A stretch of 64,000 nt of DNA from a virus. The notes beneath the pieces are model-generated. The model made no database searches. It was given only the letters and a program-made list of their open reading frames with translations, and was not told the DNA's origin. The translations under genes and the position numbers were made by a program. Shown in pieces: positions 1,616 through 61,053 of this stretch; position 1 is the stretch's first letter; every line of letters begins with the position of its first letter. Where the stretch lies: IMG/VR virus record IMGVR_UViG_3300042881_006586, one strand, 5' to 3'.

Positions 1616-2725
1616 TCAATCTTCATAATATTCTTTAAATTTTTCGTAGTATTGATTTACGAGATTTTGGTCATCGACATCTTCAAAATAATCATCTTCA
1701 TTATTTCCAAGGAATTCGTCATTTTCTATAGCTTGTTGGATTTTATTTTTGAGATATTTTGAGAGCAGTGGTTTGGATACTTTGCTCATTTGGTATAATA
1801 CATTTGATTCTAAGGTATCGGTGGAGTTTACATAAAGTTTAAGGTTATTTTCATTGAAGAAATCTAACAGGGTTTCATCTACGGTATGATAATCTTCATT
1901 GGTGATATTGTTTATATAGCCATTGATATAATTTTCCAATTTTTTGGGATAGGTTTTGTTGATAAATTCTATGGTAAAGGTATCTATGATGATTCCAACT
2001 TCTCCGAGGGAGAACATTTGTTCGTTGGAGATATAGGCATATTCTACACCGTTGAAGAATTGGTAGAAGTCATATCGAGGATTTTCTTCTTTCAGTTGGA
2101 TTGCTTTTTGGATTCTTGAATTTATATAAGAATCTTTTAGAGAGTCTTCAAGATAATCTACGGTATTTTCAGGAAGTTTGACACCTTCTTCTATACAATA
2201 TTGGATATATTCCCTTTGTGTATTTGGTTTTATTTTTGGGAATTGTTCCAAATGGAATCCGTTTTTCAGAAGTTCCAAAATGGTTTCATTTGGAAGATTA
2301 TTTTGTAGTGTATTAGAGAATGGTCTATGGATGGTTTTAGAATAAAACTCCTCTATAAAATCTGCGATAGGATATTCGTTAGCATCGAGTATTTGGATAC
2401 CTAATTGCACTTTAGATTCTTCTTCGGAGTCTAAAAATCTTTTGATTGGGAATTGTTCCAAAGAAAATCCATTTTTCAGAAGTTCTAAAATGGTTTCATT
2501 TGGAAGATTATTTAGTAATTCGTTGGAAAATTTTTCGTATTTAGAATAAAACTTCTTTATAAAATTTATGATAGGATATTCGTTGGCATCGAGTATTTGG
2601 ATACCTATTTGCACGTTAGATTCGTTTTCAGAGTCTAAAAATCTTTTGAGGTTGTTAAGTTCTTCGTAGTTCAGATTTTCAAAAAGGAGTTTATATTGGC
2701 TTTCTGAGATAATTATTTTTTTCAT
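1616..2725 (-). CDS. Hypothetical protein with capsid-targeting-like leader and an internal ~70-aa duplication
   Basis: Starts MKKIIISESQYKLLFE. KRFLDSE...LEQFP occurs twice (210-bp period, ~2236-2650). TATTTATA 13 nt upstream. Confidence 0.8.
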   Translation of the reverse strand: MKKIIISESQYKLLFENLNYEELNNLKRFLDSENESNVQIGIQILDANEYPIINFIKKFYSKYEKFSNELLNNLPNETILELLKNGFSLEQFPIKRFLDSEEESKVQLGIQILDANEYPIADFIEEFYSKTIHRPFSNTLQNNLPNETILELLKNGFHLEQFPKIKPNTQREYIQYCIEEGVKLPENTVDYLEDSLKDSYINSRIQKAIQLKEENPRYDFYQFFNGVEYAYISNEQMFSLGEVGIIIDTFTIEFINKTYPKKLENYINGYINNITNEDYHTVDETLLDFFNENNLKLYVNSTDTLESNVLYQMSKVSKPLLSKYLKNKIQQAIENDEFLGNNEDDYFEDVDDQNLVNQYYEKFKEYYED

Positions 2726-2813
2726 TTGAAAATTTAATTATAAATATATTTGTTTTAGGAGGAATATTTATTGTTACAAAGGTAATGATATAATTTTAAA
2801 AAACTAAATTTAT

Positions 2814-3572
2814 ATGAGAATAATTATTACGGAGGCTCAATATGGGTTTATAACTTCATATAAAAATATTACTGAAAATACTTTATTAAAAAATGTTGTT
2901 AGGAGATATGAATCTTTAATAAAGAAAAAGGGTGTTGGTATTTTAGGTAAATTGGAGGAATCTGATTTAGAAAATCCAAATAAATATGAAGACGAAATAA
3001 ATACAATTATTGAATTATATTATGATTTAGAAGATGCTTATAACTATGATGATGATTTTGATTATAAACAAGGTCAATCTGAGTTATTTTCTAAATTAAA
3101 AGATAACATTGTATATAAGATGTGGTTTAATTATAAAAATGCTATGGAGCGTAACAGACCTGATTCTGCGTTATCGTTAGATAGGTTTGCGAATTATTTA
3201 AATTCAGGTACGTTATTATTATTTGAAAATAATGAAAGTTACATTATTGGTAAATATTCAAATGGATTTTTTAAACCATCACATTTTGCACCTAAGAGTA
3301 TAAGAGAGGGTATTGAGATAATAAAGGAATTAATTAAGTATGACAATATAGTTTTTACTGTAACAGATGATTTAAAAGATATGTTAGATAAATTGGGGGC
3401 ATATTCAAATGATAATCTTGTTATTTCGATGATATTTAGAGATATGCTTGTTAAAAAGCATGTGGTTCTAACGAATCCTTATATAATGGCACAGGTATTA
3501 AATGGATTGATGAATAATGAGTATAAAGACATATCAGATTTTGAAAATATAACTTATGAAGATTTAAAATAA
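2814..3572 (+). CDS. Hypothetical protein with capsid-targeting-like leader
   Basis: 252-aa ORF starting MRIIITEAQY. Confidence 0.75.
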   Translation: MRIIITEAQYGFITSYKNITENTLLKNVVRRYESLIKKKGVGILGKLEESDLENPNKYEDEINTIIELYYDLEDAYNYDDDFDYKQGQSELFSKLKDNIVYKMWFNYKNAMERNRPDSALSLDRFANYLNSGTLLLFENNESYIIGKYSNGFFKPSHFAPKSIREGIEIIKELIKYDNIVFTVTDDLKDMLDKLGAYSNDNLVISMIFRDMLVKKHVVLTNPYIMAQVLNGLMNNEYKDISDFENITYEDLK

Positions 3573-3580
3573 ATTAATAT

Positions 3581-4378
3581 ATGAGAAGAATAATTATTAC
3601 GGAGGCTCAATATGGGTTCATTGAGGGGATTGAGATTGGGGATGATGGTCAGATGAAGTTGGATGTGACTGACAAGGGAAATCAAAAATATATTGATACA
3701 TCTTTGGGGAAGTCATCAAAGAATGTTAAATTTGAAGCGAGGGTTACAACATTACCACAATCGGGGGTCAAGGTTATATCGGTATATAAGAAGGGTTCTG
3801 TTGAGGATAAGAGTCTAACAGATGTATTAAAGGGATTGAAGCGTAAGAGCAGTTCATATAGTATTTCAGATGAGGAGTATGATAGGTTTATCAACAGGAG
3901 TGCGATATTTTTTGCGAAGGAGATGAATCGTATGAAAGTTGATTCTGTGTTTTGCATGGGGTCATCATCTTCATTGGTCAGGGATATAGCTGAGAGGACT
4001 GTGGGAAAAGTATCGAATATTTCTTTGAAATTTTTGCCTGATTCGATTAAGAAAAATATTGATATGCTTGAGTTGGTTATTCCTGATGAGGATATAGAGC
4101 GTTTTGGTTCGGACATATTGGGTAGTTTGAGGAAAGAGGTTGAGAAGGCAAAGCAGCGTGGTGAGTTTGAGATAAAGAAGATACAGCCACAGTACAGAAA
4201 ATTTTTCAAGGGGTGGATAGAGGTTAATTCTGCATATATAAAGTCCATTATGGACAAGGATATAATTCTTTTTGATGATTATTTGACATCGGGGGCAACG
4301 CTTGATGAGGTATGTTTGGCGTTGAAGGCATATTCACCTAAGTCGATAACATGTTTTACAATTATAAAAATGAAATAA
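3581..4378 (+). CDS. Phosphoribosyltransferase-fold protein with leader
   Basis: PRPP-binding loop IILFDDYLTSGATL; starts MRRIIITEAQY. Confidence 0.75.
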   Translation: MRRIIITEAQYGFIEGIEIGDDGQMKLDVTDKGNQKYIDTSLGKSSKNVKFEARVTTLPQSGVKVISVYKKGSVEDKSLTDVLKGLKRKSSSYSISDEEYDRFINRSAIFFAKEMNRMKVDSVFCMGSSSSLVRDIAERTVGKVSNISLKFLPDSIKKNIDMLELVIPDEDIERFGSDILGSLRKEVEKAKQRGEFEIKKIQPQYRKFFKGWIEVNSAYIKSIMDKDIILFDDYLTSGATLDEVCLALKAYSPKSITCFTIIKMK

Positions 4379-4383
4379 GTCGT

Positions 4384-5139
4384 ATGAAAATAAGTTTAAA
4401 TGAATTAAGGTTGATTATCCATAATATTATTCAAGAGAATTTTGAGGATATTACTGAATATGAGGATTATGTTGAGCCTAAGAGAAAGAATAATAGGAAT
4501 ATTTCGGATATAGGTATTTCTCAGGATGAGGGTCGTGGAGTTGCCAATATAATGGCGGTGTATAATGAAGCTGAGGAGGAGGAAAAAGATTTTTGGGGGA
4601 GATGGTATTATAATTCAAAAGAAAATGTTCAAAATTTGGCACAGAGACATGATATTGATTTTGTGGTGACTGCTGCGGTTGTGGCGGTACTTTCTCCTGG
4701 GAATAAATGGAAGGCAAATCTCGTAGCTGCAGATAATGTCATTCAGATGTTTAAAAATCCTGAGATTCGAAAAAATATTAATGCATATGGTAAAAATGTA
4801 GAGAAGGCTATTAAAATTTTAGAGAGTGGAGATATTGGATATGTGCGAGGGCCGAAGGTATCCGTATTTTTAAAATCTCTCATTGACCCTGATTACACAA
4901 AAGATGCATTGGTATTAGATTCTCATGCTATAAACATTTGGTATGGTATCAAGAGAAATATAAAAATGACTCCAACAATTTCCACTAAAATGCGGATGAA
5001 AATCATGGATGATTATAGAACTGCTGCGAATAAATTGGGAGTGGGATTGCAAGCACTTCAAGCTACAACATGGTATATATGGAAATCGTTGAAAAATGCG
5101 CCTGAAATACCTCATACAAACATTCAAGTAGAAGTTTAA
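4384..5139 (+). CDS. HhH-GPD/DNA glycosylase-like phage protein with leader
   Basis: WY...AVLSPGNKWKAN...GPKV..F...LDSH...LQATTW pattern. Start moved to ATG 4384 (MKISLNELRLIIHNIIQE). Confidence 0.55.
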   Translation: MKISLNELRLIIHNIIQENFEDITEYEDYVEPKRKNNRNISDIGISQDEGRGVANIMAVYNEAEEEEKDFWGRWYYNSKENVQNLAQRHDIDFVVTAAVVAVLSPGNKWKANLVAADNVIQMFKNPEIRKNINAYGKNVEKAIKILESGDIGYVRGPKVSVFLKSLIDPDYTKDALVLDSHAINIWYGIKRNIKMTPTISTKMRMKIMDDYRTAANKLGVGLQALQATTWYIWKSLKNAPEIPHTNIQVEV

Positions 5140-6035: not shown

Positions 6036-6821
6036 ATGAAAAAGCTAATATTAACAGAGGGTCAGTATAGAATTCTTTTTGAGGGTATCAATGAGCAGGG
6101 GGAGCTTCGAAAGTTAGCCGAAGAGGTTATAGCTAAATTTTCAAAAGAAAACTTATCTGTTGTCAAGAGGGTTAAGAAGCAGATAGATGCAGGTCTTCCT
6201 GTTGATGGTTATTTTAACAGTGACTATATCAGTTTGGTTGAAATTACTGATGGGGGGTTGTATGATTTGTTAGGTGATTTTATCAAGAATTCTTCAGTTA
6301 ATATAGTTTTTTATGAAGATAAAAACAAGCGTATGAAGGGGGTTTATGATGGGAATGTTAAAATAAAATATAATAAAGATTTTGAGGGTAGTTTGGTATA
6401 TCAGGTTGGGTTTTACGAGAAGGCTGATGATATTAGTTCATCGGAAGCTGAACAGATTCTTAAGAAGGCTATGGGAATCTCCTTTAGAAGTACATTGATT
6501 CATGAGTTGCAGCATGCTTATGATGCTTATAGGAGTGGTGGAAAGTATGTATCAGACAAGAGGAGTGTTGCTTTTTATAACAAAAGGGGTGAAAATGATA
6601 TGAGTGATGAGGAGTATCAAGTATATTTAAGTTTACCACATGAGTATTGGGCGAGGTTCAGTCAGACGATGGCGGATATATTTAGGGATGGGATGAGTTT
6701 TGAGGATTTGCTTGATAAGTTTAAGAAGAGTGTTATTATGAGGTTTGATTCATTGAGGGATGGTGACAAGCGTAGAATATTGAAGGCATTATATGGGTAT
6801 TGGGATTTGCATAAAAAATAA
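6036..6821 (+). CDS. Zincin-like metallopeptidase (HExxH) with leader
   Basis: LIHELQHAYD plus downstream HEYWAR; starts MKKLILTEGQYRILFE. Confidence 0.7.
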   Translation: MKKLILTEGQYRILFEGINEQGELRKLAEEVIAKFSKENLSVVKRVKKQIDAGLPVDGYFNSDYISLVEITDGGLYDLLGDFIKNSSVNIVFYEDKNKRMKGVYDGNVKIKYNKDFEGSLVYQVGFYEKADDISSSEAEQILKKAMGISFRSTLIHELQHAYDAYRSGGKYVSDKRSVAFYNKRGENDMSDEEYQVYLSLPHEYWARFSQTMADIFRDGMSFEDLLDKFKKSVIMRFDSLRDGDKRRILKALYGYWDLHKK

Positions 6822-6886: not shown

Positions 6887-7222
6887 ATGAAACAAGTATT
6901 AAAGAGTATGATTGAAAGATTTTCATTTGGGCAAATGACTTCAAATGAGAATGGTAAGACATCTGCATCGGGAACTATGGGAGTTTTGATATGTGTCATT
7001 GGAACGCTTTGTTTTTTGATGGGATGTGTTGACAAGATGTTTTTGAACAAGGATATTGATGTTATCACGCAGAGCATCATATTTGTTGGTATTGGAGCAG
7101 GTTTGTTAGGATTCAGAAAATCAAGGGAGAGAAAAGTGGTTTCAAAGGAAATTCCACAAGCAGTTGAGCAGATGCCTTCAATTGGAACAGAACAATTACC
7201 ACAAAATCCACAAGAGTTATGA
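6887..7222 (+). CDS. Two-TM membrane protein, putative holin
   Basis: Two hydrophobic helices and a basic tail; late motif upstream. Confidence 0.5.
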   Translation: MKQVLKSMIERFSFGQMTSNENGKTSASGTMGVLICVIGTLCFLMGCVDKMFLNKDIDVITQSIIFVGIGAGLLGFRKSRERKVVSKEIPQAVEQMPSIGTEQLPQNPQEL

Positions 7223-7554
7223 GAATGAATGATTTTAAAAGAATTATCAGAGAAATGGTTTCTGATGAGATGGGTTCAAATGAAATGGGTATGGTTTCAA
7301 AGGGAAATATGATGAAAGTCAAAAGCAAGCAAGGGGAATTGACTGAAAATTATATGTTTTTTTCCAATTTGCAACAGATGAAAAGACAGATTGAGCTTTT
7401 GATGGAATTGGATAGAGAGGAGATTGAAGGTATTCTTCAGAACGGTCATGATTGGGCTGAAGACCACGTGGCTGTTGCAAAGAACAATTTAGACCAAGTT
7501 TTTGATTTCATGATGAATGAGGTTGAAGATTGTGGATGTGAAGATGAGATGTAA
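7219..7554 (+). CDS. Small acidic hypothetical (probable head) protein
   Basis: ATGA overlap with upstream gene; leader-like FKRIIRE and LTE site. Confidence 0.7.
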   Translation: MRMNDFKRIIREMVSDEMGSNEMGMVSKGNMMKVKSKQGELTENYMFFSNLQQMKRQIELLMELDREEIEGILQNGHDWAEDHVAVAKNNLDQVFDFMMNEVEDCGCEDEM

Positions 7555-13186: not shown

Positions 13187-14941
13187 ATGAGAAAAATAAT
13201 TTTGACTGAAGAGCAATATGTTGATTTTTTAAATGAAAAAAAGTTAAGACTTCTAAGGGCTAATTGCAGGTCTTGCAAAGAAAAATCAAGATTAAAAAAT
13301 TTGTTTGAAAGTGTTAATATTGATGAAAATTTAAAAGTAGGTCAAGGCACTGTCTGTTTGAATCATCAAGATGTTACAGGATTCATAAATTCAATAAGAA
13401 AAAATGCAATTAAATTGGATGATAAATATAAAAGATTTATTAATGATAGCGAATTTTCTAAATTAAAAGGTATTAAATTTACAATAGCACAACCTTTTAT
13501 CCATAGTAAATCAAAATTATTTAAAGATGAAGAAGGAGCTTCTGAAAAAGAAAATAAAATAATTTCTCAATTAAAAAAAGAATTAGATGAAATTTATAAA
13601 AAATATAGGCAATCTAAAAATAATGGCGATGCTGAAAATTATGAAAAAATAATAAAGGCAAAAATAGCACATCTTTCAAAGGTTCATGATGGTTTGGCAG
13701 TGGACATAGAAAATTTTAAAAAGAATTTGATGGTTTTACCTAATAGTATTATTGGTAAAAATGCAAAAATGATGAAATCGGGAGCTGCAAATGAATTTGT
13801 GGTAAATACAGGTATTCCTGCTGTTGGTGCTATTATTTATAATAGAGCTGAGGATAGATTTGAGATGATTGAAACATGCCCAGGTCGTGGCTCATGTGCC
13901 ACCTTCTGTTATGCATTATCAAGTAATTATACACGTTTTTTTGGAGCTTATGATATCATGATAAGAAGATTAAATTTCATGATTAATGACCCTCAAGGTT
14001 ATGAAGATAAATTTTTTAACGAATTATATTCATTAGCTGAATTGAAAGGAGCAATAATTACAGAAAAAAAGATGAATTCTGCAATAAACCAATTTATATC
14101 CATTCATAAAGATGCAATAAGCAATATTAAGCGTAAGAATCCTGATTTTAGCGATTCAGATGCTATAGAGATGTTAAAAGAAGAATACGATAAATACTTA
14201 ATAAAATTCATGAATGATAGTAATAAAATTGTTTTAAGATGGAATGATTCAGGAGATTGGTTTAGTGAGGAATATGTAACAATTGGCTCGAATGTAGTAA
14301 GAAGATTAAGAGCAAAAGGAGTTAACATTACTACAACTACTTACACAAAAATTGCTCAAATAAGTGCAGATATCAGAGGGGTATGGGATGCAAAAAAAGA
14401 TTTTGCAATATATTCTGTTGGAGGAGCAAGTAAAAAAGAAGTAAGAAAATATAAAGAAATTCAAGCAACTGATGCTGCAAATAGACCTGTAAAAGATGCC
14501 ATTAGTCCTGATGGAACTAATTTTATGAATCCTATCACTGATAAACCATATAATGAAAAATTTGAAGATTTAAATTATATATTTAATATTGATAAAGGGG
14601 GTGCAAATAATAATGAAGTATTAAGAAGTTTTGGTGAAAATTACATGGGAATGAAAAATGTAGATTTGACTCCTTCAACAGTAAGCGATATAAAAGCTAA
14701 AATAAAAGAATTGATGCCATTTTTCAAAAATGATTTCAAAGAACAAATGCAAGCATATTTGAAAAGAATACATGATAAGGATGTTGAAATTAGTGATATC
14801 ATTTATTATGATGAAATGCGAAAAAGTTTTGAGATAAGAATTGGGCAAGAAATGAAATATTACGTAATTGTACCTAAAGGTTCAGGTGATGATGCTGCAA
14901 TATATCCAAGTACAAAAATGGTAATAAATTTAATGCATTAA
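13187..14941 (+). CDS. Gp88-like (radical-SAM-like Cys cluster) protein with leader
   Basis: TCPGRGSCATFCYA, RWNDSGD, YTK motifs; starts MRKIILTEEQY. Confidence 0.65.
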   Translation: MRKIILTEEQYVDFLNEKKLRLLRANCRSCKEKSRLKNLFESVNIDENLKVGQGTVCLNHQDVTGFINSIRKNAIKLDDKYKRFINDSEFSKLKGIKFTIAQPFIHSKSKLFKDEEGASEKENKIISQLKKELDEIYKKYRQSKNNGDAENYEKIIKAKIAHLSKVHDGLAVDIENFKKNLMVLPNSIIGKNAKMMKSGAANEFVVNTGIPAVGAIIYNRAEDRFEMIETCPGRGSCATFCYALSSNYTRFFGAYDIMIRRLNFMINDPQGYEDKFFNELYSLAELKGAIITEKKMNSAINQFISIHKDAISNIKRKNPDFSDSDAIEMLKEEYDKYLIKFMNDSNKIVLRWNDSGDWFSEEYVTIGSNVVRRLRAKGVNITTTTYTKIAQISADIRGVWDAKKDFAIYSVGGASKKEVRKYKEIQATDAANRPVKDAISPDGTNFMNPITDKPYNEKFEDLNYIFNIDKGGANNNEVLRSFGENYMGMKNVDLTPSTVSDIKAKIKELMPFFKNDFKEQMQAYLKRIHDKDVEISDIIYYDEMRKSFEIRIGQEMKYYVIVPKGSGDDAAIYPSTKMVINLMH

Positions 14942-17711: not shown

Positions 17712-18128
17712 TTATTCAAAAATTTCAGGATGCTGTTTACCAAATTTTCTCATCATAACTCCTGCAAATGAATTTGCTTCATTTTCTTCAGGAGAACCAT
17801 CTTCTCCTGATGAAGATGTTAATATACCATTTAAGTTTTGTTGATGGTGTTTTAGTTCATGAGCGATACTTCTTAACACATCACCAATATGTCTATTCTT
17901 TATATAGACTGTCAAACTACTTTCAGCAGGAGAAAAATGTGCAAAGGTTTTTGTTTTAGATTTTTTATCAGTCAAAAGAACTTTAATTTTATCATTTATA
18001 GATAGATTCTCTTTGCAAAAATCTACAAATGTTTTTATCAATGGGAGTTTTTCATTGATATCATTGGAAACTATTGGGCTATTTTTGAAAACTAAATTAT
18101 ATTGTTCTTCAGTGATAAGTAATTTCAT
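17712..18128 (-). CDS. Zincin/ImmA-like metallopeptidase with leader
   Basis: IAHELKH...ENEAN; starts MKLLITEEQY. Confidence 0.75.
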   Translation of the reverse strand: MKLLITEEQYNLVFKNSPIVSNDINEKLPLIKTFVDFCKENLSINDKIKVLLTDKKSKTKTFAHFSPAESSLTVYIKNRHIGDVLRSIAHELKHHQQNLNGILTSSSGEDGSPEENEANSFAGVMMRKFGKQHPEIFE

Positions 18129-18137: not shown

Positions 18138-18410
18138 TTAATAACCATAAATATCTTTTCTCAGTTGGTTAGAAACTTTTTTTAATTTAGAAGCAGTAGT
18201 ATCTTCATTTTTAGATTTATAATGATTTGCCATAGCATCTAATATTTGAGACGTACTAAATTTATTTAATAGGCTTTTTAAAGAATCAGTAATATTTAAC
18301 GAGATTTCAGGTTTTTTATCGGGATATTTTTCTTTAGAATTTTCTTTAGAATTTTCTTCTCTCAAAACTTGTTTAACAAGCATTTTTAATTCATTCAATG
18401 AAATATTCAT
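18138..18410 (-). CDS. Small protein with leader
   Basis: Starts MNISLNELKMLVKQVLREE; late motif upstream. Confidence 0.7.
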   Translation of the reverse strand: MNISLNELKMLVKQVLREENSKENSKEKYPDKKPEISLNITDSLKSLLNKFSTSQILDAMANHYKSKNEDTTASKLKKVSNQLRKDIYGY

Positions 18411-42700: not shown

Positions 42701-44557
42701 ATGAAACCACTTTCTAAAGGTAAGACAGGTTATGGTCTTTTAATTGAATATGATGCAGGCTTTATTAGCCCAAGTGATAATACTCATTTTCTTAGGGAAA
42801 TGAAAGAAGGTTCTGAAAAAGGAATTGTTCGCACTAAGTTATATGGAGTTATGCAAAAATACGGAGTTGAAAATAAAAACGGTCGTATTTATCCTGAAGC
42901 ATTGCTTAAAAGGGAAGCTGATAATTATATGAAATTAGTTGAAATGGGTGCATCAGCAGGTCATACTGACCATCCTGATTGCTATAGTGAAGGAGCTGAA
43001 ATTTTAACAACTGAAGGTTGGAAATTTTTTAAAGATTTAAAAGGAAATGAATCTGTTTATACGTTAAAATTAGATGGTTCGATTTCTGTTGAAAAAATTA
43101 ATAAAAAAATAGTTCAACCTTATAAAGGAAAAATGATTCGTCTAAAGGGGTTGAATATTGATTGTGAAGTTACACCTAATCATAAATTTCCTGTATACGA
43201 TAGAAAAAGAAATCAAAAATTTATCACTGCACAAGAAATTTTTGATGGAACAATAACTGATATGTCTAAACATTTTATACCTAAAAGGGCAAGAAATTTT
43301 GAATTAGGTAAAAATGGAGTCTTTACAATTTCTAAAATTAAAAATTTTCATTCGAGAGTTTCTAAAGTATTTTATAAAAAGCAATTTAAAGATTTAGTTT
43401 TAGACGAGGTTTTATTTGCTTCGTTTATGGGTATTTATTTAGCTGAAGGTTGTTGTTCAACATCAAAAAATTCGTATAAAATATCTATATATCAAAATAA
43501 ACTTGATAATGTAGAAAAAATAGATAATCTATTAAAATCTTTAAATTTTCACTATCATAAACGTGAAAGAAAAATTGGAGGTTTTGTTTTTGAAATTATT
43601 GATGCAAGATTATATAATTTTTTAAAACCTTTAGGTGTTGCAAAAAATAAATATATTCCTGAAGAAATAAAAAATATGTCTTTTGAAGCTTTAAATGCTT
43701 TATTTGAATGGTTTCATTTGGGTGATGGTAGAATAAGAAATGGTAAACAAAAATCTATTTTTTCAACTTCAAAAAGATTAATGGAAGATTTTCAAGAAGT
43801 CTTATTGAAAATTGGAAAATCAGGTAATATTACTATAGATAAAAGAACTGAAAAAGATAGATTAATTAATGAGAATGGTAATGTGCGTGTAATTAAAGCA
43901 TGTAATTCAAATGATATTTATAATTTAAATATATCTAACTGTAATGGCATTTTTCTAAACAAAGATTTTCTAAACGTTGAAGAATTCGATTATGAAGGTA
44001 ATGTTTATTGTGTAAATGTTCCAAATCATACTTTTTTTGCAAGACAAAATGGAAAAACTCATTGGTCAGGAAATAGTGCAATTATTTCAATTAAAGAGGT
44101 TTCAATGAGAGTAACAAATCTTTGGTGGGAAGGAAGAAACTTGATGGGTGAAATTTATTTGCCAATAACCAAAGGATATATCGAAACAGGTGTGATTTCT
44201 CATCCTGCGGATAAAGTTGCTCATGACATTATGCATGGTTTCCAATATGGAGTTTCAAGTCGTGGTGTAGGCAGTTTAGAATCAAAAGGAGGAAAGAATA
44301 TTGTTCAAGATGATTTTGAATTGATTTGTTGGGACTTTGTTACCACTCCAAGTACAAATGGTTCTTGGGTATTCTCAGATAAAAGTAAAGCAGAACCTTT
44401 TAAAGAAAGTTTAGATGTAAAAGGTTATGATGTTGAAGCAGATTTTAATAAACATAAAAAGAATGGAGATATGTGGGATTATATGTTAAAGGGTAGAAGT
44501 CCACAAAAAGTCGATAAAATAAACAATGTATTCAATAGTTTTCTTGATAAATTTTAG
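42701..44557 (+). CDS. gp21: Prohead core protease (T4 gp21-like) with LAGLIDADG intein
   Basis: NKNGRIYP, DHP, GVSSRGVGS, DFELICWDFV..PS motifs. Confidence 0.95.
   Translation: MKPLSKGKTGYGLLIEYDAGFISPSDNTHFLREMKEGSEKGIVRTKLYGVMQKYGVENKNGRIYPEALLKREADNYMKLVEMGASAGHTDHPDCYSEGAEILTTEGWKFFKDLKGNESVYTLKLDGSISVEKINKKIVQPYKGKMIRLKGLNIDCEVTPNHKFPVYDRKRNQKFITAQEIFDGTITDMSKHFIPKRARNFELGKNGVFTISKIKNFHSRVSKVFYKKQFKDLVLDEVLFASFMGIYLAEGCCSTSKNSYKISIYQNKLDNVEKIDNLLKSLNFHYHKRERKIGGFVFEIIDARLYNFLKPLGVAKNKYIPEEIKNMSFEALNALFEWFHLGDGRIRNGKQKSIFSTSKRLMEDFQEVLLKIGKSGNITIDKRTEKDRLINENGNVRVIKACNSNDIYNLNISNCNGIFLNKDFLNVEEFDYEGNVYCVNVPNHTFFARQNGKTHWSGNSAIISIKEVSMRVTNLWWEGRNLMGEIYLPITKGYIETGVISHPADKVAHDIMHGFQYGVSSRGVGSLESKGGKNIVQDDFELICWDFVTTPSTNGSWVFSDKSKAEPFKESLDVKGYDVEADFNKHKKNGDMWDYMLKGRSPQKVDKINNVFNSFLDKF
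42980..44074 (+). mobile_element. 365-aa intein with LAGLIDADG homing endonuclease
   Basis: DHPD|CYSEGAEILTTEGWK...VTPNH...GIYLAEG...HLGDG...VYCVNVPNH...WSGN|S. Confidence 0.92.
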
Positions 44558-44610: not shown

Positions 44611-45987
44611 ATGTCAAAAAATTTATTAGAAGAATTGCTAATTCAAGCAAGCACGTTAAATGAGGTAACTGAAAAACGTGTTAATAATAATCAAAAAATA
44701 GTAATCGAAAATACTATGGCTTCTGCTGTTCGTAACTTTATTCAAGAAGCGGTAGGAGAAGAGGAAATTAATACTGCAGTTAATCCGCAAGAGCAAGGAA
44801 TGAGTCCTAAAGAAGCTGCTGAAGCTGCTAAATTGATGAAAGAAATGGAAAAACTTTATTCTGAAGAAGAAGTCGATGCTGAAACAGGTGAACCTTTAGC
44901 TTCTGATGAGGAAGACGAAGAGGAAGAAGAAGAGGAAGAAGACTATTCGGATGAAGATGAGGAAGAAGACTATTCGGATGAAGATGAGGAAGATGAAGAT
45001 TATTCTGAAGAAGATGAAGATATGTATGGTAGTGAATACACAGCGGATGAAGATGAAGAAGATGAAGATTATTCTGAAGAAGATGAAGATATGTATGGTA
45101 GTGAATACACAGCGGATGAAGATGAAGAAGAAGTCACGGATATGACTAATGCAGAAATCAATGATGTAATGGAGTTCATTGAGAATTCGGCTGAAGATGT
45201 GGTTATTCAGGTGGTAAAACACCCAACATACAATGTTAAGGTTTCAGGTGGCTCAAAAGGAATGTCAAAAGGCATGGGTTCATCTATGGAAGATGAAGAT
45301 GTAGAACTTGAAATTGACGAAACTGTACTTATGGAAATGATGAAAGGGTTGAAAGCTGAAATGAGAGGTAAAAATCCTATGAAACATGGAAGAGGCATGA
45401 AGCAAGAGGAAATTAAGGATATATATGAAGATGAAGATATTACTCTTGAAATCGAATTAGATGAAATGGAAGGTATGGAAGGTTTAGATGAGATGGAATT
45501 AGAACCGAGTCAAATGACAGACCCTAAAACAGGTAAAACATACGAATTAAAAGCTGTTGCCGAAAATCGTAGACTTAAAAACCGACTAAACCAATTGATT
45601 GCTGAGAACAAAAAATTGAAAATTAATGAAACAAAATCAATTGCAGCATTAAAATCAATGATTGAACAAACCAAACAAGTTGCTTTAGTAAACAGTAATC
45701 TTGCATATGTTTCAAGACTTTTCACTGAACATTCAACTACAAAACAAGAAAAAATTGCCATTTTGAAAGAATTTGATTCTGCTAAAACTTTAAAAGAATC
45801 TGAAATGACTTTCAAAATACTGACTGAATCTTTGGGTAAAAGAACTCAAAAGAAAACTTTAAATGTAAACATTAATGAAGCTGTAGATTTTAACAAACAG
45901 AAAGTTGTAAAAGAAGAAAAAGCTTATGTCAATGACCCTGAGCAAGCGCAGATTTTACGATTGATGAATTATAAATCTACCCTTTAA
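44611..45987 (+). CDS. Prohead scaffold/core protein (T4 gp22 position)
   Basis: Between protease and capsid; highly acidic with 69-bp duplication, C-terminal coiled coil, many LxE sites. Confidence 0.8.
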   Translation: MSKNLLEELLIQASTLNEVTEKRVNNNQKIVIENTMASAVRNFIQEAVGEEEINTAVNPQEQGMSPKEAAEAAKLMKEMEKLYSEEEVDAETGEPLASDEEDEEEEEEEEDYSDEDEEEDYSDEDEEDEDYSEEDEDMYGSEYTADEDEEDEDYSEEDEDMYGSEYTADEDEEEVTDMTNAEINDVMEFIENSAEDVVIQVVKHPTYNVKVSGGSKGMSKGMGSSMEDEDVELEIDETVLMEMMKGLKAEMRGKNPMKHGRGMKQEEIKDIYEDEDITLEIELDEMEGMEGLDEMELEPSQMTDPKTGKTYELKAVAENRRLKNRLNQLIAENKKLKINETKSIAALKSMIEQTKQVALVNSNLAYVSRLFTEHSTTKQEKIAILKEFDSAKTLKESEMTFKILTESLGKRTQKKTLNVNINEAVDFNKQKVVKEEKAYVNDPEQAQILRLMNYKSTL

Positions 45988-46023: not shown

Positions 46024-47847
46024 ATGAGTATTATTTCTTCTAACAAACTTGGTAATATTACTACCAATAGAGAACGCTCACTTCGTCAAGAAATTACGGA
46101 GCGTTATGAAAACGTTGGTCGAGTTATCAACGAAAGAGGTCAAGTCCTTAAAGAAGGTGTGAATTGGCTTGGTGGACTTAAAGGTCACGTAAAAGACAAT
46201 ATCGCTTTGCTTTTCGAAAATCAAGCTAAGATTCTTAATGAGCAAACTGATTCATCTTCAAGCGGTTCTTTTGAAACAGTTGCGTTTCCTATGATTCGCA
46301 GAATTTTCTCTAAATTGCTTGCTAACGATATCGTATCTGTACAAGCGATGACACATCCTTCAGGAACATTGTTCTTCTACTATCCTCAGATTTCTGATAG
46401 AGTTGTAACTGTTGACCCTATTACAGGTTATGAAGTTCAAAGCCATACTTCACAAATTGCTAACCTTCCTGCATGTATCAGCGGTCACAACTGTTCTGAT
46501 ACCACTTTCACAGGTTGCAAATCATTGTATGACCGTTTCTATGATGATGGTACATATGATTTCTCTAAAGGTAAATTCACTGTTGTTACAGCTACAGGTG
46601 AAGCAGTTTCTTTGGATGTAAACGGTTGTTGGACAACTTACACTCCTGCAATTGCAACTGATGGTTCACTTCGTCACGTTAAATTTGGTGTTACAGGTTT
46701 TGATAATAGCAATCTTTCTTCTTCTAAAGGTCACACTGCTCGTTTGGGTGGTCGTGGTGGAAAAGGTCTTGAAATTGATAACCAAGAATTCCTTGCTTCT
46801 TTCACTGTTATTTGGGCAAATGTTGCTCCACTTCTTGACCCTAACGGAAATGTTATCTTCAACGAAGGTGATGTTATTCCTTTCCGTTCAGTGGCTCAAA
46901 AATATGGTCAAAGACTTGTACATTGGTCTGATTGGTGTGACCCTAATGGTACATTCTACATTGAATTGGATTTGACTCAACCTAATCCTGACTGTGTTGG
47001 TTGTCCTACATTTGATGGTTACATCGGTGCTGCATCAGGTACTACTTTTGCTGCAGAAGATATCGCTTTCGTTTGGAGACGTTATGATGACCTTGAATAC
47101 GAAACAGAAATGGGTGAAGTAACATTTACAATTGAGAAAATCAACGTAACTGTTAAACCTCGCAAACTTCGTGCTCGTTGGAGTCCTGAACTTGCTCAAG
47201 ACGTTAATGCTTATCATAACATTGATGCTGAAGCAGAACTTACTGCTCTTCTTTCTGAGCAAATCGCTATGGAAATCGACCGTGAAATTCTTCGTGAATT
47301 GAAGCGTGGTGCTGCTTGGACTCTTCGTTGGGACTTCTTGGGATGGAAATATCAAGGTTCTCAAAAATACACTGAGAAAGAGTGGAAACAAACTCTTATC
47401 ACTCGTATCAACCAACTTTCTGCTCAAATCCACAAATCTACTCTTCGTGGCGGTGCTAACTTTATCGTAGTTTCTACTGAGGTTTCTGCATTGTTCGATG
47501 ACCTTGAAAACTTCATGGTTTCTAACGGTAACGTGGATGATGACAAATACAACTTGGGTATGCGTAGAATCGGTACTTTGAGTGGTCGTTACACTGTATA
47601 TGTTGACCCATATGCAAAAGCAGGTGACATTTTGATTGGTCACAAAGGTAGCTCTATCCTTGACACAGGATACATCTATGCTCCTTATGTACCACTTCAA
47701 TTAACTCCAACTTTGACTGACCCTCATACTTTCACAAATGTAAAAGGTATCACTACTCGCTACGCTACTGCTTACATTAACAATCATTATTTTGCAAGAG
47801 TTGTTGTAGATAACATTCCTACATTCGACACTCGTGAATTGAGATAG
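46024..47847 (+). CDS. gp23: Major capsid protein (T4 gp23-like)
   Basis: FPMIRR..LLANDIVSVQAM..P.G, RKLRARWSPELAQD..AYHNIDAEAEL, EIDREIL, YAPYVPL, TRY motifs; highly expressed codon bias. Confidence 0.97.
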   Translation: MSIISSNKLGNITTNRERSLRQEITERYENVGRVINERGQVLKEGVNWLGGLKGHVKDNIALLFENQAKILNEQTDSSSSGSFETVAFPMIRRIFSKLLANDIVSVQAMTHPSGTLFFYYPQISDRVVTVDPITGYEVQSHTSQIANLPACISGHNCSDTTFTGCKSLYDRFYDDGTYDFSKGKFTVVTATGEAVSLDVNGCWTTYTPAIATDGSLRHVKFGVTGFDNSNLSSSKGHTARLGGRGGKGLEIDNQEFLASFTVIWANVAPLLDPNGNVIFNEGDVIPFRSVAQKYGQRLVHWSDWCDPNGTFYIELDLTQPNPDCVGCPTFDGYIGAASGTTFAAEDIAFVWRRYDDLEYETEMGEVTFTIEKINVTVKPRKLRARWSPELAQDVNAYHNIDAEAELTALLSEQIAMEIDREILRELKRGAAWTLRWDFLGWKYQGSQKYTEKEWKQTLITRINQLSAQIHKSTLRGGANFIVVSTEVSALFDDLENFMVSNGNVDDDKYNLGMRRIGTLSGRYTVYVDPYAKAGDILIGHKGSSILDTGYIYAPYVPLQLTPTLTDPHTFTNVKGITTRYATAYINNHYFARVVVDNIPTFDTRELR

Positions 47848-47955: not shown

Positions 47956-49395
47956 ATGGATTTTGAATCTTTCATAAAAGAAGCTATAAATGAAATCCAA
48001 TCAAAAGAAGATAAAATTCAAAAGAAAAAAATAGTAATTGAATTTGAAATTGATTGGAATAAAGACATAGGTAAAGTTAAACAAGAAATTACTTTAGCTA
48101 TGTCTAAAGATAGTATTGGTTTATTTAAACTCGGAAAAGATATTGAAAAATTTTCAGGCTTAACTTTAAAAGATGCAGAAAAATCTAAAGAAACTCCTGA
48201 TGATGCGTATGTCTATGGATTATGTAATGTTATGAATGGAGGTAAAGATATATTCTTTTGGACTAACGGTACTCGCCTTTCAGGAGCTGCTAAAAAATCA
48301 GGTGTATTAGAAGCGATTATAGAGCAAATTTCTCATGAATGTGTTCATTTGACTCGTTTAATATTATCAAAACATGTCTTTGAAAAAGATGAAGAGTGGT
48401 ATACTAAAGATTTAGTTATAAGTGACAAAAAAGGAAAAAATATTATTGATGAGGAAGCTTTTGCTACTGCTGAAGGAATAATAGCTGAAAAAATCCTTCC
48501 ATATTTTTTAGACATGGCAAAAGAGTATATACCTCAATTGAGAAAATTAAATTTAAATGAATCAAAAAATCTCACAGGGTTAAGAAGATGGTTCAAAGAA
48601 AAATGGGTAGATGTCTCAAGAAAAGTAGATGGTAAACATCCTGAATGTGGAAGAAGTGATGCTGATAAAGGTGCTTATCCTAAATGCAGACCTTCAAAAA
48701 AAGTAAACAGTAAAACTCCAAAGATAGCTTCATCATTTTCAAAAAAAGAAAAACAATCAATGGTAAGAAAAAAGAGGGCTGCAGAAAAAAAACCAAGACA
48801 AGGTAAAACTCCTCATTATACAACTTATAAAGAATCTGAAGAAATGAATATAAACGAAACAGAATTGTGTGCAAGAGGAAAGGATGCTGCAAAAGAGAAG
48901 TTTGATGTGTATCCAAGTATCTATGCTAATTCTTTTGCAGTTAAAGTCTGCAAAGGACAGGTAAAAGGTCTCGATGGAAAAAAATCTGTTGCATCAGGAT
49001 ACCAAAAGAAAAAAGGTAAACCAAAAAGAATTAAAGAATCCTTTGAAGATTTAAAACTTGATTTGATAAATGATAGAGTTCTAAATGAATCATATCAATG
49101 GGTTCTTCAGGAAGCAACATACAAAGGAAAAAAAGTTACCCTTAATAGACCGTTTAGACAGGCTGCTGCAGGTAAAAAGTTTGCAGTATATGTCAAAGCT
49201 CCTTCAGGGAATGTAAAGAGAATTAGATTTGGAGCTCAAGGTTATCGTGTTAGAAATGCGAACAAAGGTGCAGCAAGTAATTTTCAAAAGAGACATAAAT
49301 GCTCTGAAAAGAAAGATAGAACAAAGGCAGGATATTGGGCTTGCAGAGCACATTTATATTCAAGTTTAAAATTGGCATCCTCAAGAAAATGGTAA
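47956..49395 (+). CDS. Multi-module protein: HExxH domain plus three basic Cys-containing modules separated by (L/I)xE sites
   Basis: ISHECVH; LNE|..RRWFKEKWVD..CGR..YPKCRP; INE|.ELCARG..YPS.YAN; LQE|ATYKGKKV.LN.PFR..KKFAVYVK..RHKC..AGYWAC. Confidence 0.7.
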   Translation: MDFESFIKEAINEIQSKEDKIQKKKIVIEFEIDWNKDIGKVKQEITLAMSKDSIGLFKLGKDIEKFSGLTLKDAEKSKETPDDAYVYGLCNVMNGGKDIFFWTNGTRLSGAAKKSGVLEAIIEQISHECVHLTRLILSKHVFEKDEEWYTKDLVISDKKGKNIIDEEAFATAEGIIAEKILPYFLDMAKEYIPQLRKLNLNESKNLTGLRRWFKEKWVDVSRKVDGKHPECGRSDADKGAYPKCRPSKKVNSKTPKIASSFSKKEKQSMVRKKRAAEKKPRQGKTPHYTTYKESEEMNINETELCARGKDAAKEKFDVYPSIYANSFAVKVCKGQVKGLDGKKSVASGYQKKKGKPKRIKESFEDLKLDLINDRVLNESYQWVLQEATYKGKKVTLNRPFRQAAAGKKFAVYVKAPSGNVKRIRFGAQGYRVRNANKGAASNFQKRHKCSEKKDRTKAGYWACRAHLYSSLKLASSRKW

Positions 49396-50271: not shown

Positions 50272-50625
50272 ATGAAACTTATACTTAACGAAAATACTAA
50301 AAAGACTCTTCTCAGTGAGAATTTGAAATATCATTTGAAAAATAGAATAACTATACACGAATCAGTTTTCAGAATCGGTTCAGATTCTTGGTGTGATTTG
50401 ATAAATGAAGTAAGAGAATTACATGAGGATGGATTGATTATGTTGAATGAAGAGGAGCAGGAAATCATTGATTCAGATGCAGGTGAATATGGTTTGTATG
50501 AAGGAGAAGATGTTCCTTTGGATGCACCGTTTCTTCTTGAAGTAAAAAATGATGGAACAAAATTGTATGGTGTGTTTGTTCTTGATGAACACGAAAATAC
50601 TAAAAAAGTAGTTTTTAAAGCATAA
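50272..50625 (+). CDS. Hypothetical protein with leader
   Basis: Starts MKLILNE...LLSENLKYHL. Confidence 0.7.
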   Translation: MKLILNENTKKTLLSENLKYHLKNRITIHESVFRIGSDSWCDLINEVRELHEDGLIMLNEEEQEIIDSDAGEYGLYEGEDVPLDAPFLLEVKNDGTKLYGVFVLDEHENTKKVVFKA

Positions 50626-53406: not shown

Positions 53407-53415
53407 TTGTTATTT

Positions 53416-55599: not shown

Positions 55600-55604
55600 T
55601 TTTT

Positions 55605-55877: not shown

Positions 55878-55893
55878 TTTATTTGTTTAATTT

Positions 55894-58051: not shown

Positions 58052-59491
58052 ATGTATTGGAGAACATACTTTGACAAGGACAATGTTATAATAAAGGATT
58101 CAACTGTTAATCTTGGGAAGAATCCAATTGTATCGCTTTATTACGGTGGTACTTATGGAAGTTCTACATATTCAAGATATATCTTTCATTTTCCAATTGA
58201 AAAATTGAAACAACTTTATGACGATTGCATGCTTGGTGATTTAACCAATGTCAAACATAAGCTCGTTTTGAAACCTACAAGATATTTCGGAAACGGTTTG
58301 GATATGACAACTGCATGTTTGGCAACTGCATATGATTTGTGTCTTTTCAGGACAAGACAAGATTGGGTTGAAGGATGTGGATATGATTTTGACTGCGCTG
58401 AAAGATGTGATGGTTATATCAGTCCAAATTGTAATACTTCTTTAGCAGAATCCAATTGGTTCTATGCAAAACCAAATGAACCTTGGCAAACTCAAGGGAT
58501 ATACGATGCATTTTCTGCAGAAACAATGATTATCACAGGAGATACTTATTTCTCAGGAGAACCTATATATCTTCAATGCAAAGCTCAAGCCTGTGATGAT
58601 TGTCTTTTTGAAATGGATATGACTTCTCTTGTAAATGATTTGATTTCGGGAGACACCCCCAATTATGGATTTGGATTGGCTTTCAATAGTAACTATGAAA
58701 TAAATCCCGAAGGAGTTACAAAATATCTTGGATTTTATAGCAGTGAAACTCCTAACTTTTTCAAACCCTATATTGAAACTGAATATATCAATCCAATTAT
58801 AGATGATAGGCAAAGTTTTTACACTGATAAGGAAAATACTTTATATCTATATGTAAATGTCAAAGGAGAACCTGCGAATTTGGATGAAAATCCAATTGTA
58901 ACGATATATAATGAGTTTGACGATGTTTATACTATCCTAACAGGAGAATGTGTCTCAAAAGGAATTTATGGAGTTTCTTTTGAAGTTGATTCTGCTCAAT
59001 CTGATATAAACAGTTGTGTCGTTTGGAGAGATGTGTGGTCAAATGTTAAAATCAATGGCAGATTGTTAAGGAATGCTGAACAAGAATTCCAATTGAAACC
59101 TAATGATGATTATTATCAAATAGGAATAAGTACAGGAAGTCCTAAAAAATATGGTTTCAAATTCAAAGGGATTCAAAGAAATGAAAATATAAGAGTTGGT
59201 GATGTAAGAAAGATAACTATTGATACTTATGAAGCATTTGAGCCTAATAAGAGAGTAGTTGTTGATAACATTTTTTATAGGCTATATGTAAAAGAAGGAG
59301 TTGAACAATTGGATATTATACCTTGGACTCCTGTAAATATTGGTTCTTGTGAAAATTTTATTTATCTTTATACCGAATGGATGCTTCCTCAGATTTATTA
59401 TTTAGATTTTAAATCTATATCTAATCAAGAGGAAAGAACTTATCCTGAAGAAATCAAATTTTATATATTAGACGATAATGTAAAATGTTAA
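58052..59491 (+). CDS. Cys-rich virion structural protein
   Basis: Late motif 7 nt upstream; SRYIFHF...W.EG.GYD...NYGFGLAF...PYIE pattern resembling DNRLRE-like domains. Confidence 0.6.
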   Translation: MYWRTYFDKDNVIIKDSTVNLGKNPIVSLYYGGTYGSSTYSRYIFHFPIEKLKQLYDDCMLGDLTNVKHKLVLKPTRYFGNGLDMTTACLATAYDLCLFRTRQDWVEGCGYDFDCAERCDGYISPNCNTSLAESNWFYAKPNEPWQTQGIYDAFSAETMIITGDTYFSGEPIYLQCKAQACDDCLFEMDMTSLVNDLISGDTPNYGFGLAFNSNYEINPEGVTKYLGFYSSETPNFFKPYIETEYINPIIDDRQSFYTDKENTLYLYVNVKGEPANLDENPIVTIYNEFDDVYTILTGECVSKGIYGVSFEVDSAQSDINSCVVWRDVWSNVKINGRLLRNAEQEFQLKPNDDYYQIGISTGSPKKYGFKFKGIQRNENIRVGDVRKITIDTYEAFEPNKRVVVDNIFYRLYVKEGVEQLDIIPWTPVNIGSCENFIYLYTEWMLPQIYYLDFKSISNQEERTYPEEIKFYILDDNVKC

Positions 59492-61053
59492 AAAAATATA
59501 TTTTTGAAAGATTGCAAGATGTTGAAGCTACAAAGTTAGCTGAAACTGTTTTTAATGAAATAGTTTTTCATAAGCAAAGGGAGATACAAGAAGAATTTAA
59601 AAATTGGGGTATAATAGGTTTTAATACTCCTGATGGGATTAAATTAGATTCATTTGAAGGTGTATTTTCATTGAAAGTTATCAATAAATTTGCATCTTCT
59701 TTTTATTCACCATCTAAAGATGATAAATTGATTGTTTTAACTGTTGTTGGTTATGATAAGTATAATGATATGGTTGATAATTTAATTAGAATCATAATTG
59801 ATAAAAAATCGACTTTTATTCATGAATTCATTCACATGTTAGATGATATAAGAAGTGATGGGAAAATTATTAAAGAACCTACTAATAAGGAAGGCGGTCA
59901 AAAAAGATATGAAAAACTGAATAGAGAAGTAAATGCAAGATTTCATCAGATTGCTTCTGCAGTAAAAGAAAAATATATAGACAAAGAAATAGCTTCTATA
60001 AAAAAAGATTATGTTTTAAATAGAAAAAAATTTGAAAATGAATTTGATTTTGAAGGGTTATCAGAAGAAGAAAAATTGAATCTTGTATTAGTTAATTCTT
60101 CAGAATATGTTTGTAATATAAATTATTTAGTAGATTTATTTAAAGAGGAAATATTTAATTTTTTCCATTATAAATTAAACCCTAATTTAGAAAAAAGACT
60201 TCTTTCAAGAGCATATACTTATTTTTCAGAGCTTATTAAAAGTTATGATATTGATTGTTCAAAAAAAATAAAAATAATTTACGAAAATAAAATAAACTCT
60301 TTATTGGAAACTTATAGGGCTATAACTGAAGATGATTTAAATGAAGTTATATATGTTCCAAATGAAGGAAGTGATGAAGAAGGGAATGAATATTGGATAA
60401 AACAAATGAAACTATCAATTGACCGTTTGAGGGCTCAAAATCCTTTAAATGGGGTAAAATATGATTTAGATAGTATTGATTTCCCTAATGAAATTATAAA
60501 TCTTTATGGAAAAGTTTTTGCAATAGTTTTATATTCTAATGAAAATATGGAAGATATTGTATATATGACTCGTTATGAATTGTATAGAGATGGGATTAAA
60601 CTTATTAATACAAGGTCTGTCCCAAATGTCAGAGGTCGAGGATTAGCTCTTAGAATATATAAAGCATTAAAACAAAAATTAAATACTCCAATTTATTCAG
60701 ACACTTCTCATTCCCCATTTACAAAATTTGGTGTTTGGAAAAAATTATATAAAGAATCTCCGAATAGTGTAAAAGCATATGATGTAAATAAAGACAAAAA
60801 ATTTGACATTGAAATGAGACCTAATAGAAAAGGTGAAGAGGATATGTTTTATATTGATAACAATGTTGATATTAAAGAATATAAAAAAACTGCAAAAACT
60901 CTTGGGATTAATTGGGATAAAGATTGGAATAAAGGCTCTCAAATAAATTGGGATAATGTTCCTGCAGATGTTAAAGATAAATTAATGGAATACTCCAAAT
61001 ATAAAGAAGTATATTCGAAAAAAGATAATGGAATTATATTAGTTTATCTATAA
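59485..61053 (+). CDS. Polyvalent protein: zincin HExxH domain plus GNAT-like domain
   Basis: FIHEFIH...EVNARF; linker LLE/ITE/LNE; VRGRGLALRIY...IYSD....VWKKL. Confidence 0.6.
   Translation: MLKKYIFERLQDVEATKLAETVFNEIVFHKQREIQEEFKNWGIIGFNTPDGIKLDSFEGVFSLKVINKFASSFYSPSKDDKLIVLTVVGYDKYNDMVDNLIRIIIDKKSTFIHEFIHMLDDIRSDGKIIKEPTNKEGGQKRYEKLNREVNARFHQIASAVKEKYIDKEIASIKKDYVLNRKKFENEFDFEGLSEEEKLNLVLVNSSEYVCNINYLVDLFKEEIFNFFHYKLNPNLEKRLLSRAYTYFSELIKSYDIDCSKKIKIIYENKINSLLETYRAITEDDLNEVIYVPNEGSDEEGNEYWIKQMKLSIDRLRAQNPLNGVKYDLDSIDFPNEIINLYGKVFAIVLYSNENMEDIVYMTRYELYRDGIKLINTRSVPNVRGRGLALRIYKALKQKLNTPIYSDTSHSPFTKFGVWKKLYKESPNSVKAYDVNKDKKFDIEMRPNRKGEEDMFYIDNNVDIKEYKKTAKTLGINWDKDWNKGSQINWDNVPADVKDKLMEYSKYKEVYSKKDNGIILVYL

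Follow-up and report, generated by a model that had tools for sequence, protein, structure and literature searches.

Two classes of portable N-terminal leader peptides on unrelated proteins of an uncultured T4-related jumbo phage: candidate capsid-targeting propeptides

Why should unrelated proteins of a single phage begin with the same short peptide? The question is raised by a 64,000-nucleotide stretch of DNA (the window) from the IMG/VR virus record IMGVR_UViG_3300042881_006586, in which two leader peptides, here called A and B, head genes whose products are otherwise dissimilar. The window is the reverse strand of bases 18,947-82,946 of a 125,583-base record that CheckV rates as 46% complete; its GC content is about 30%, and two bases differ between the window and the genome record. 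A preliminary description of this DNA proposed that about 15 of its enzymes carry such leaders as addresses for the capsid. That count was inflated, a realistic figure being nine strong cases and about four supported ones, and the best-supported interpretation is that the leaders constitute an enlarged, two-class version of the known T4 principle of capsid targeting, and not a new kind of system.

The phage itself is an uncultured, T4-related jumbo phage. Its closer uncultured relatives are G001 (184.5 kb, with a capsid protein 77% identical) and G002 (38 kb, 84%), and the comparisons with G001 cover 68% of that genome. The nearest cultured phages are all distant, and comprise Microcystis phage Mel-JY01, the Flavobacterium immuto phages, PA5oct-like phages and RM378.

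Leaders A and B and their cargo

Leader A has the form M-K/R-h-h-h-T/S-E-x-Q-Y (where h is hydrophobic), with a hydrophobic run of three to four residues followed by T-E, and heads six genes in the window and a seventh at the contig end. Leader B has the form M-x-I-S/T-L-N-E-L-R/K...h-x-E and heads three window genes. In a six-frame translation of the whole 125,583-base contig the strict A pattern [IL][IL][IL][TS]E.QY has seven matches, all of them two or three residues past the initial Met of an open reading frame: 2725(-), 2814, 3581, 6036, 13187, 18128(-) and, at the contig end, 82776 in window coordinates. The probability of such N-terminal placement arising by chance is about 1e-18. The pattern I[ST]LNEL[RK] has three matches, again all N-terminal, at 4384, 18410(-) and 21771(-). 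Leader hidden Markov models (HMMs) trained solely on sequences outside the window score these ten strong genes at 23.7-32.8 bits for A, the contig-end gene included, and 18.6-36.9 bits for B; the next-best matches are C-terminal copies of the motifs (15.7 and 11.2 bits), and everything else falls below 9 bits. The six A and three B positions of the preliminary description in the window are thereby upheld. Its eight additional variants are a different matter, as none of them (23515(-), 32030, 50272, 7219, 25232, 35898, 47956 and 59485) reaches 4 bits with either HMM; orthologues lend support to 32030, 59485 and 50272, which have clearer A-like starts there, and to 35898, where h-x-E is kept, and half of the eight are indistinguishable from chance.

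The proteins behind the leaders are not alignable by BLASTP past their first 25-50 residues, in agreement with the earlier claim that the cargo is non-homologous. Four proteins with HExxH motifs are confirmed (6036, 18128(-), 47956 and 59485), and among the other cargo types first suggested, Gp88 and a weak nucleotidyltransferase match are recovered, together with a phosphoribosyltransferase (PRTase) match in 3581 that lies just below threshold (PF00156, 25.8 bits against a cut-off of 26.3). The GH108, GNAT and HhH assignments fall away, none of the three being detected in the window proteins by Pfam or PHROGs. For the small zincin 18128, a Foldseek search with the predicted model gave weak minigluzincin- or IrrE-type matches only, and the ESM Atlas yielded nothing informative on the 2814 cargo. 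Across the nine members of the 18128 family the leader is invariant, and the linker that follows it varies and contains an indel. We note that members of this family (17712-18128) end exactly in ...(I/V)(F/Y)E and that the homologues P0013 and P0019 run 9-10 residues past that Glu, which may be a site of further, C-terminal trimming.

The same leaders recur on many other proteins outside the window. A search with an A profile, built from the first 42 residues of the A proteins and run against longer proteins in a set of 5.8 billion, returned 47 leader-bearing proteins in at least 12 unrelated cargo clusters, which include a PF00959 lysozyme (P0030) and PRTase-like, Gp88 and zincin proteins. 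The leader is at the extreme N-terminus in all but two of the 47, and those two probably have miscalled starts. With the corresponding B profile, 39 proteins were retrieved and at least 13 cargo clusters were represented, and ten IMG/VR contigs also carry leader B. The densest example is a 20-kb locus (L044) of a 275,969-base phage contig in ENA (GC 30%), where 11 of the 22 genes of at least 100 amino acids (aa) have leaders, namely six A, four B and one B-like as scored by the HMMs; at L044:501-998 leader A is fused directly to an ADP-ribosyltransferase domain (ART-PolyVal, 40.7 bits).

Conversely, similar cargo can bear different leaders. In G001 and G002, single proteins with A-type starts (G001_43284 and G002_13830) are homologous both to the C-terminal domain of 47956, which there has leader A, and to the cargo of 7219; paralogues in G001 that resemble leucine-rich repeat proteins bear at least three different N-termini. 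The leader DNA of the adjacent genes 2814 and 3581, whose cargo is unrelated, is identical at 38 of 39 nucleotides (nt), which points to recent transfer of the leader. Elsewhere the codons at the conserved leader residues differ (ACC, ACG, ACA and ACT for Thr; GAA and GAG for Glu; CTC, TTA and TTG for Leu), and because this variation is synonymous, selection acts on the leader peptide. The leaders are therefore interchangeable among unrelated cargo and are selected as peptides.

Leader genes are unevenly distributed on the contig. Strong leaders head 10 of 106 genes on the side containing them and none of the 95 genes, most of them small, of the early-looking side (p=0.001). The terminase, protease, scaffold, fibre and 58052 genes have a promoter-like motif, ATATTTAT[AT], 16-57 nt upstream, as do six of the nine strong leader genes; the remaining three lie farther down the same gene strings (Fisher p=6e-4). 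The earlier statement that a late motif precedes most leader genes holds as to position, the timing being a matter of interpretation. Leaders on 3581, 4384 and 18128 belong to operon-internal genes that have no promoter motif of their own.

Within their first 11 residues, 3.5-5.4% of the genes of G000, G001 and G002 have a looser form of the A core, h-h-h-[TSN]-E, as against about 0.15% of internal windows; the immuto phage has none. A pattern search of G001 for TExQY gave internal chance matches alone, so the leader drifts between relatives; the G001 orthologue of 13187, for example, starts MVILISEQQ. Searches of cultured phages by tblastn with the leader peptide and with the Gp88-like cargo gave no matches, and we found no description of either leader in a literature search.

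Module boundaries and the head genes

The extent of leader B is sharply defined. Column entropies are 0-1.7 bits at positions 1-18, with E7, L8 and E18 invariant, and rise to about 3 bits from position 20; since the jump falls past position 18, and Glu18 is preceded by I or L at P3, the module ends exactly after h-x-E. In leader A the E, Q and Y are invariant, and a second [ILVF]-x-E ends 9-12 residues after the Thr in 10 of 12 cargo clusters. The proposal that the leaders contain or end in (I/L)xE thus stands for the end of B and, for the second site of A, in those 10 clusters. Structure predictions (AlphaFold) set the leaders apart from the proteins that they head. Residues 1-21 of 18128 have predicted local distance difference test (pLDDT) values of 45-52 and are followed by a confident domain at 24-138, and the 18 residues of leader B have pLDDT values below 50 and lie outside the confident domain. 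Recognizable Pfam domains also begin past the leader, at residue 23 for ART-PolyVal and residue 52 for DUF7178.

The motifs are not strictly N-terminal, and conserved C-terminal and inter-unit copies occur. An A copy is present at the C-terminus of the gene at 79917-80402(-) and of its G001 orthologue (15.7 bits). The product of 20896-21771(-) has, in addition to its leader, a second B-like motif, LNEIRKLIKNVLKE, near its C-terminus (nt 20923-20964; 11.2 bits), which recurs at unit junctions in homologues, and in the model of this protein both terminal helices are of low confidence and detached.

The head module is of T4 type, with a gp23-like capsid protein, a gp20-like portal and a Peptidase_S77 protease, and its genes also match phrog_138, phrog_213 and phrog_207. 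The protease gene, 42701, is split by an intein at about nt 42986-44074, the insert of about 360 aa having Intein_splicing and LAGLIDADG_3 matches; the G001 orthologue, of 256 aa, is without it. An acidic protein encoded between protease and capsid genes (44611) is a candidate scaffold, with LNE conserved at residues 16-20. In the capsid protein the candidate propeptide ends in ILNE↓Q (arrow, cut), with the Glu closing residues 70-73 (nt 46231-46242) in the sequence ...LLFENQAKILNE↓QTDSSSSG, as had been suggested; ...FENQAKILNE↓QTD resembles ...IFENQEK...GSFLTE↓AEIGG of T4 gp23, and the mature T4 chain aligns from just downstream of the site. Relatives have ALVE↓S (G001), LILE↓Q (G002) and IVSE↓A (immuto) at this site, so that I/L/V-x-E is conserved. 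Because the capsid propeptide ends in this way, the 42701 protease probably keeps a T4-like preference, with a hydrophobic P3 and Glu at P1, and not the A/S/G-x-E preference of phiKZ-like phages.

Known systems and competing readings

The closest parallel is in T4, where internal proteins have capsid-targeting sequences (CTSs), propeptides of 10-19 residues that direct proteins to the core before being cut off; the residues for targeting can be separated from those for processing, and the CTS may be a general loading route for diverse proteins in T4-like phages (PMC9026906; PMC5694885). Alt is trimmed at both ends, by six residues at the N-terminus (ITE-6) and by 63 at the C-terminus (LTE-619) (PMC9026906; PMC5694885). 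The two phages have in common the T4-type head genes, including the S77 protease, which in T4 is gp21, cutting after L/I-x-E in IPI, IPII, IPIII, Alt, gp24, gp67 and gp68. In both, a short N-terminal peptide ending hydrophobic-x-Glu is found on unrelated proteins that do not look essential, the cargo genes vary between relatives, an ADP-ribosyltransferase is among the cargo (here in the related contig), and C-terminal copies occur as in Alt; this precedent appears to fit the C-terminal A and B copies better than an artefact of gene starts would. In the T4 record Alt begins MELITE↓LFDE and two ip genes begin MKTYQEFIAE. The core of A (L/I-I-T-E), as in MKLLITE-EQY here, equals the processed motif of Alt, and B opens (I-x-L-N-E-L-R) in a similar way to gp24 (MAKINELLRE). 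T4 gp24 loses about ten residues. We treat these short matches of A with Alt and of B with gp24 as leads and not as homology, and the same applies to the likeness of the 47956 start to the T4 CTS spacing, a lead only and a single case.

There are also clear differences from T4. Two classes of 17-18 residues coexist here, each with two Glu sites and known from sequences alone; the repertoire is larger, with 10 strong genes on 46% of a genome and 11 of 22 genes in the relative's locus, compared to three CTS proteins and Alt in T4; and the cargo is mostly enzymes, unlike the small basic proteins of T4. In the phiKZ-like phages (phiKZ, 201phi2-1 and SPN3US) a gp21-related protease likewise cuts many head-internal proteins after Glu, N-terminal 15-mers are identical among paralogues, and cleavage is at A/S/G-x-E (PMC5694885). 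The present system differs in that P3 is I, L or V in the capsid protein and in both leaders and not a small residue, in that the leaders are spread across non-homologous proteins and not paralogues, and in a capsid protein and portal closer to T4 type. Polyvalent proteins (Iyer et al. 2017, PMC5512222) are enzymes delivered with the invading DNA and have zincin and ART domain types in common with the leader proteins, although they combine 2-15 domains in one polypeptide, whereas here each gene is separate and encodes a leader and one recognizable domain.

As a control, the same clustering of N-termini recovers the T4 CTS trio, including IPII/IPIII, and the pair Alt/Alt.-1, and finds no leader family in cyanophage S-SM1; a ...QLKQIIKEEL leader that might have been expected in T4-like cyanophages was not borne out in S-SM1. 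In immuto it finds different leader families (MENFDLKKFLVEN..., MKKSQLRxIIKxEL... and MKKQILSEQF...), one of which heads a 73-aa protein encoded between portal and protease, the position of the T4 core genes 67/68.

Taking these comparisons together, we consider it reasonably probable that both leaders serve as capsid-targeting propeptides like those of T4, in an enlarged form with two classes. The leader would be an N-terminal peptide of 17-18 residues in which an initial h-(T/S/N)-E, at residues 5-8, is followed by a short amphipathic segment and in most cases by another h-x-E, at 15-18; it would tether cargo made late in infection to the scaffold or core of the assembling prohead. The gp21-type protease 42701 would then cut after Glu and release the cargo inside the head, and the freed cargo would leave with the DNA at infection. 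Core binding, cleavage, presence in virions, injection and an anti-defence role are all steps that we only infer. Zincins, ART-PolyVal proteins and PF00959 lysozymes, all of them among the cargo, belong to protein classes whose injection together with phage DNA is established or predicted (PMC5512222).

Several points weigh against capsid targeting. The cultured phages with which the comparison can be made are distant, neither leader aligns to the T4 CTS MKTYQEFIAE, and the T4 cleavage rule does not account for the invariant Q-Y after the first Glu of A. The tripeptide h-x-E is common, so its presence alone is weak evidence, and its general positional enrichment in late proteins is modest and adds little. 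Leader A has drifted in G001 (VLISE, IITEKQ), and a search of 68% of that genome gave no leader B. The ATATTTAT[AT] motif also precedes the helicase-like gene 11368, so calling it late is itself interpretation. Lastly, the head would have to hold dozens of cargo species, some of them of 584-1099 aa.

The Q-Y residues, unneeded for a T4-type cut, would be more readily explained if the leaders were docking tags for some other late assembly or site (tail or baseplate, capsid decoration, a membrane or a multi-enzyme complex), in which a short strand or amphipathic helix binds a common partner and no head protease takes part. Such tags would accord with the prediction of both leaders as short detached helices, with the internal B-like motifs at unit junctions, and with the use by this same genome of a 35-residue N-terminal adaptor on six fibre-like proteins. 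They would leave unexplained that the B module stops exactly at an invariant h-x-E and that the A core is the processed ITE motif of Alt; the cargo, moreover, consists of enzymes of injected-effector types and not structural proteins, and in the immuto phage it is a small protein in the portal-protease gap, at the T4 67/68 position, that carries an amphipathic leader of similar style. We judge docking of this kind unlikely. Still less likely is a role for the leaders as tags recognized by an enzyme or chaperone, such as a modifying enzyme or the phage's own ClpB-like AAA+ protein (28562-30997), or as autoinhibitory pro-sequences: a conserved two-ring ClpB-like gene does adjoin the leader genes, but this reading explains neither the h-x-E boundary nor the parallels with Alt, and no co-occurrence with any single enzyme was seen. 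A tag linked to a radical-SAM enzyme was rejected, as Radical_SAM (PF04055) has no match on the 46%-complete contig or among the 22 genes of the L044 locus.

The near-identity of the 2814 and 3581 gene starts, and the general preference for AT-rich first codons (Lys, Ile) at translation starts in AT-rich genomes, might suggest a gene-start cassette of promoter and first codons that spreads as DNA with no function for the peptide, or else old paralogues in which only the N-termini are still similar. We regard both as very improbable. The cargo is drawn from several distinct families and folds (PRTase, zincin, Gp88, DUF7178, ART and lysozyme), and conservation takes in the E-x-Q-Y of A and all 18 residues of the B helix. 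The synonymous codon changes at invariant residues, which indicate selection at the peptide level, operon-internal leaders with no promoter motif and conserved C-terminal copies rule out a DNA-level cassette or translation signal, and BLASTP and the distinct Pfam families rule out diverged paralogues. A Sec or lipoprotein signal peptide is likewise ruled out, as the hydrophobic run of A is 3-4 residues, compared with the core of about ten or more that follows the basic N-terminus of such signals, and B is an amphipathic, charged helix.

Neighbouring genes and significance of the leaders

The features of the window discussed above are listed in Table 1.

Table 1. Leader-bearing genes, weaker candidate starts and head genes of the window
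Feature	Coordinates	Strand	N-terminus	Remarks
Leader A gene	1616..2725	-	MKKIIISESQYKLLFEN...	369 aa, repeat-containing cargo; 32.8 bits; promoter-like motif 22 nt upstream
Leader A gene	2814..3572	+	MRIIITEAQYGFI...	252 aa; 26.5 bits; L044 orthologue also has leader
Leader A gene	3581..4378	+	MRRIIITEAQYGFI...	265 aa; 27.1 bits; C-terminal PRTase-like segment
Leader B gene	4384..5139	+	MKISLNELRLIIHNIIQE...	251 aa; 18.6 bits; DUF7178 (PF23802, 7e-35) from residue 52
Leader A gene	6036..6821	+	MKKLILTEGQYRILFEG...	261 aa; 26.9 bits; HELQH, zincin-like cargo
B-like start	7219..7554	+	MRMNDFKRIIREMV	Cargo homologous to N-terminal part of leader-A proteins in G001/G002
Leader A gene	13187..14941	+	MRKIILTEEQYVDFLNE...	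584 aa; 29.6 bits; Gp88 at 324-461 (PF17338, 2e-12)
Leader A gene	17712..18128	-	MKLLITEEQYNLVF...	138 aa, small zincin (HELKH); phrog_87
Leader B gene	18138..18410	-	MNISLNELKMLVKQVLRE...	90 aa; 28.9 bits
Leader B gene	20896..21771	-	MRITLNELRNLVKNILKE...	291 aa; 36.9 bits
Weak A-like start, doubtful	22241..23515	-	MRKILTLEQIYKLVE	424 aa; regular expression alone; <4 bits; promoter-like motif 20 nt upstream
Degenerate A-like start	32030..33034	+	MKIKVNED...	Nucleotidyltransferase-like (weak match); G001 orthologue MRILVSEQ
Small head-module protein	35898..36245	+		Amphipathic N-terminus ends h-x-E, residues 18-20, in three phages
Large terminase	36328			Head module
Portal, gp20-type	38134..40653	+		Profile matches
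Prohead protease, Peptidase_S77 (T4 gp21 family)	42701..44557	+		PF03420, 51.7 bits
Candidate scaffold, acidic	44611..45987	+		Between protease and capsid genes; role from position alone
Major capsid protein, gp23-type	46024..47847	+		PDB gp23 matches at 1e-27
Start with CTS-like spacing	47956..49395	+	MDFESFIKE	HECVH; aromatic/aromatic/I/E spacing as in T4 CTS
A-like start	50272..50625	+	MKLILNEN	Kept in G001 and G002
Degenerate start	59485..61053	+	MLKKYIFE	HEFIH motif; G001 orthologue MLKKLIVSES

Several neighbouring genes are also of note. Inside the island of leader genes, 5145-6002 (+) encodes an Exo_endo_phos family nuclease/phosphatase with a classical signal peptide (MKKIVVIIVLVFIFIGANLV...) and no leader, and 28562-30997 (-), amid leader genes, encodes a two-ring AAA+ protein of ClpB/ClpA type (AAA_2, AAA_lid_9 and ClpB_D2-small) that is 62% identical in G001. 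A PAP2-superfamily phosphatase gene (49397-50266 (+)) lies within the string of head genes. The six fibre-like proteins (14946-16592 (+) and 50670-57981 (-)) have a common 35-residue N-terminal module, KPNxFPxRPxLDGTEExYTQT..., that is also found in G001 and is likely a common attachment adaptor. Outside the window, at window coordinates of about -40,300 to -32,100, is a tandem array of about 30 small (-) strand genes (58-125 aa), of which 17 cluster by the start M(E/K)NL(N/S)(K/R)KI, followed by Q/L-rich repeats such as SQLxSQL.

Two repeated families were noted in G001. Three near-identical genes of 403-416 aa (41936-43186, 70310-71560 (-) and 170132-171343, in L023/L024/L029), with the start MQYKSLKIRLEPT..., look like a TnpB/OrfB-type transposon protein that has multiplied in the genome. 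A large paralogous family of repeat proteins with the N-terminus MDIxKLNEIMKKRLxEGFFG is present at several G001 loci (e.g. 3520-4518, 73143-75323 and 43872-45876) and at 31366-32010 in the window, and some of its members bear A-like leaders in place of this N-terminus.

A bolder reading is that A and B together make up a sorting code, each class being recognized by a different receptor in the core or scaffold, with N-terminal, C-terminal and inter-unit copies allowing tethering and release, and that a clade of marine, low-GC, jumbo T4-like phages packs dozens of enzymes (zincins, ADP-ribosyltransferase, lysozyme, PRTase-like proteins and others) in this way. We offer this as speculation with rather long odds; if it were true, a leader HMM would list the first-strike proteins that a phage injects directly from sequence.

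Proteins injected with phage DNA act ahead of any phage gene expression and are hard to spot from sequence; they include known counter-defence and host-takeover factors such as T4 IPI and Alt. If leaders A and B mark packaged cargo, a profile of 17-18 residues would flag dozens of putative injected effectors among uncultured marine phages, and the sharp boundary of the module would give exact predictions of their mature N-termini. The T4 packaging-tag principle would then have been scaled up and diversified far beyond the T-even phages.

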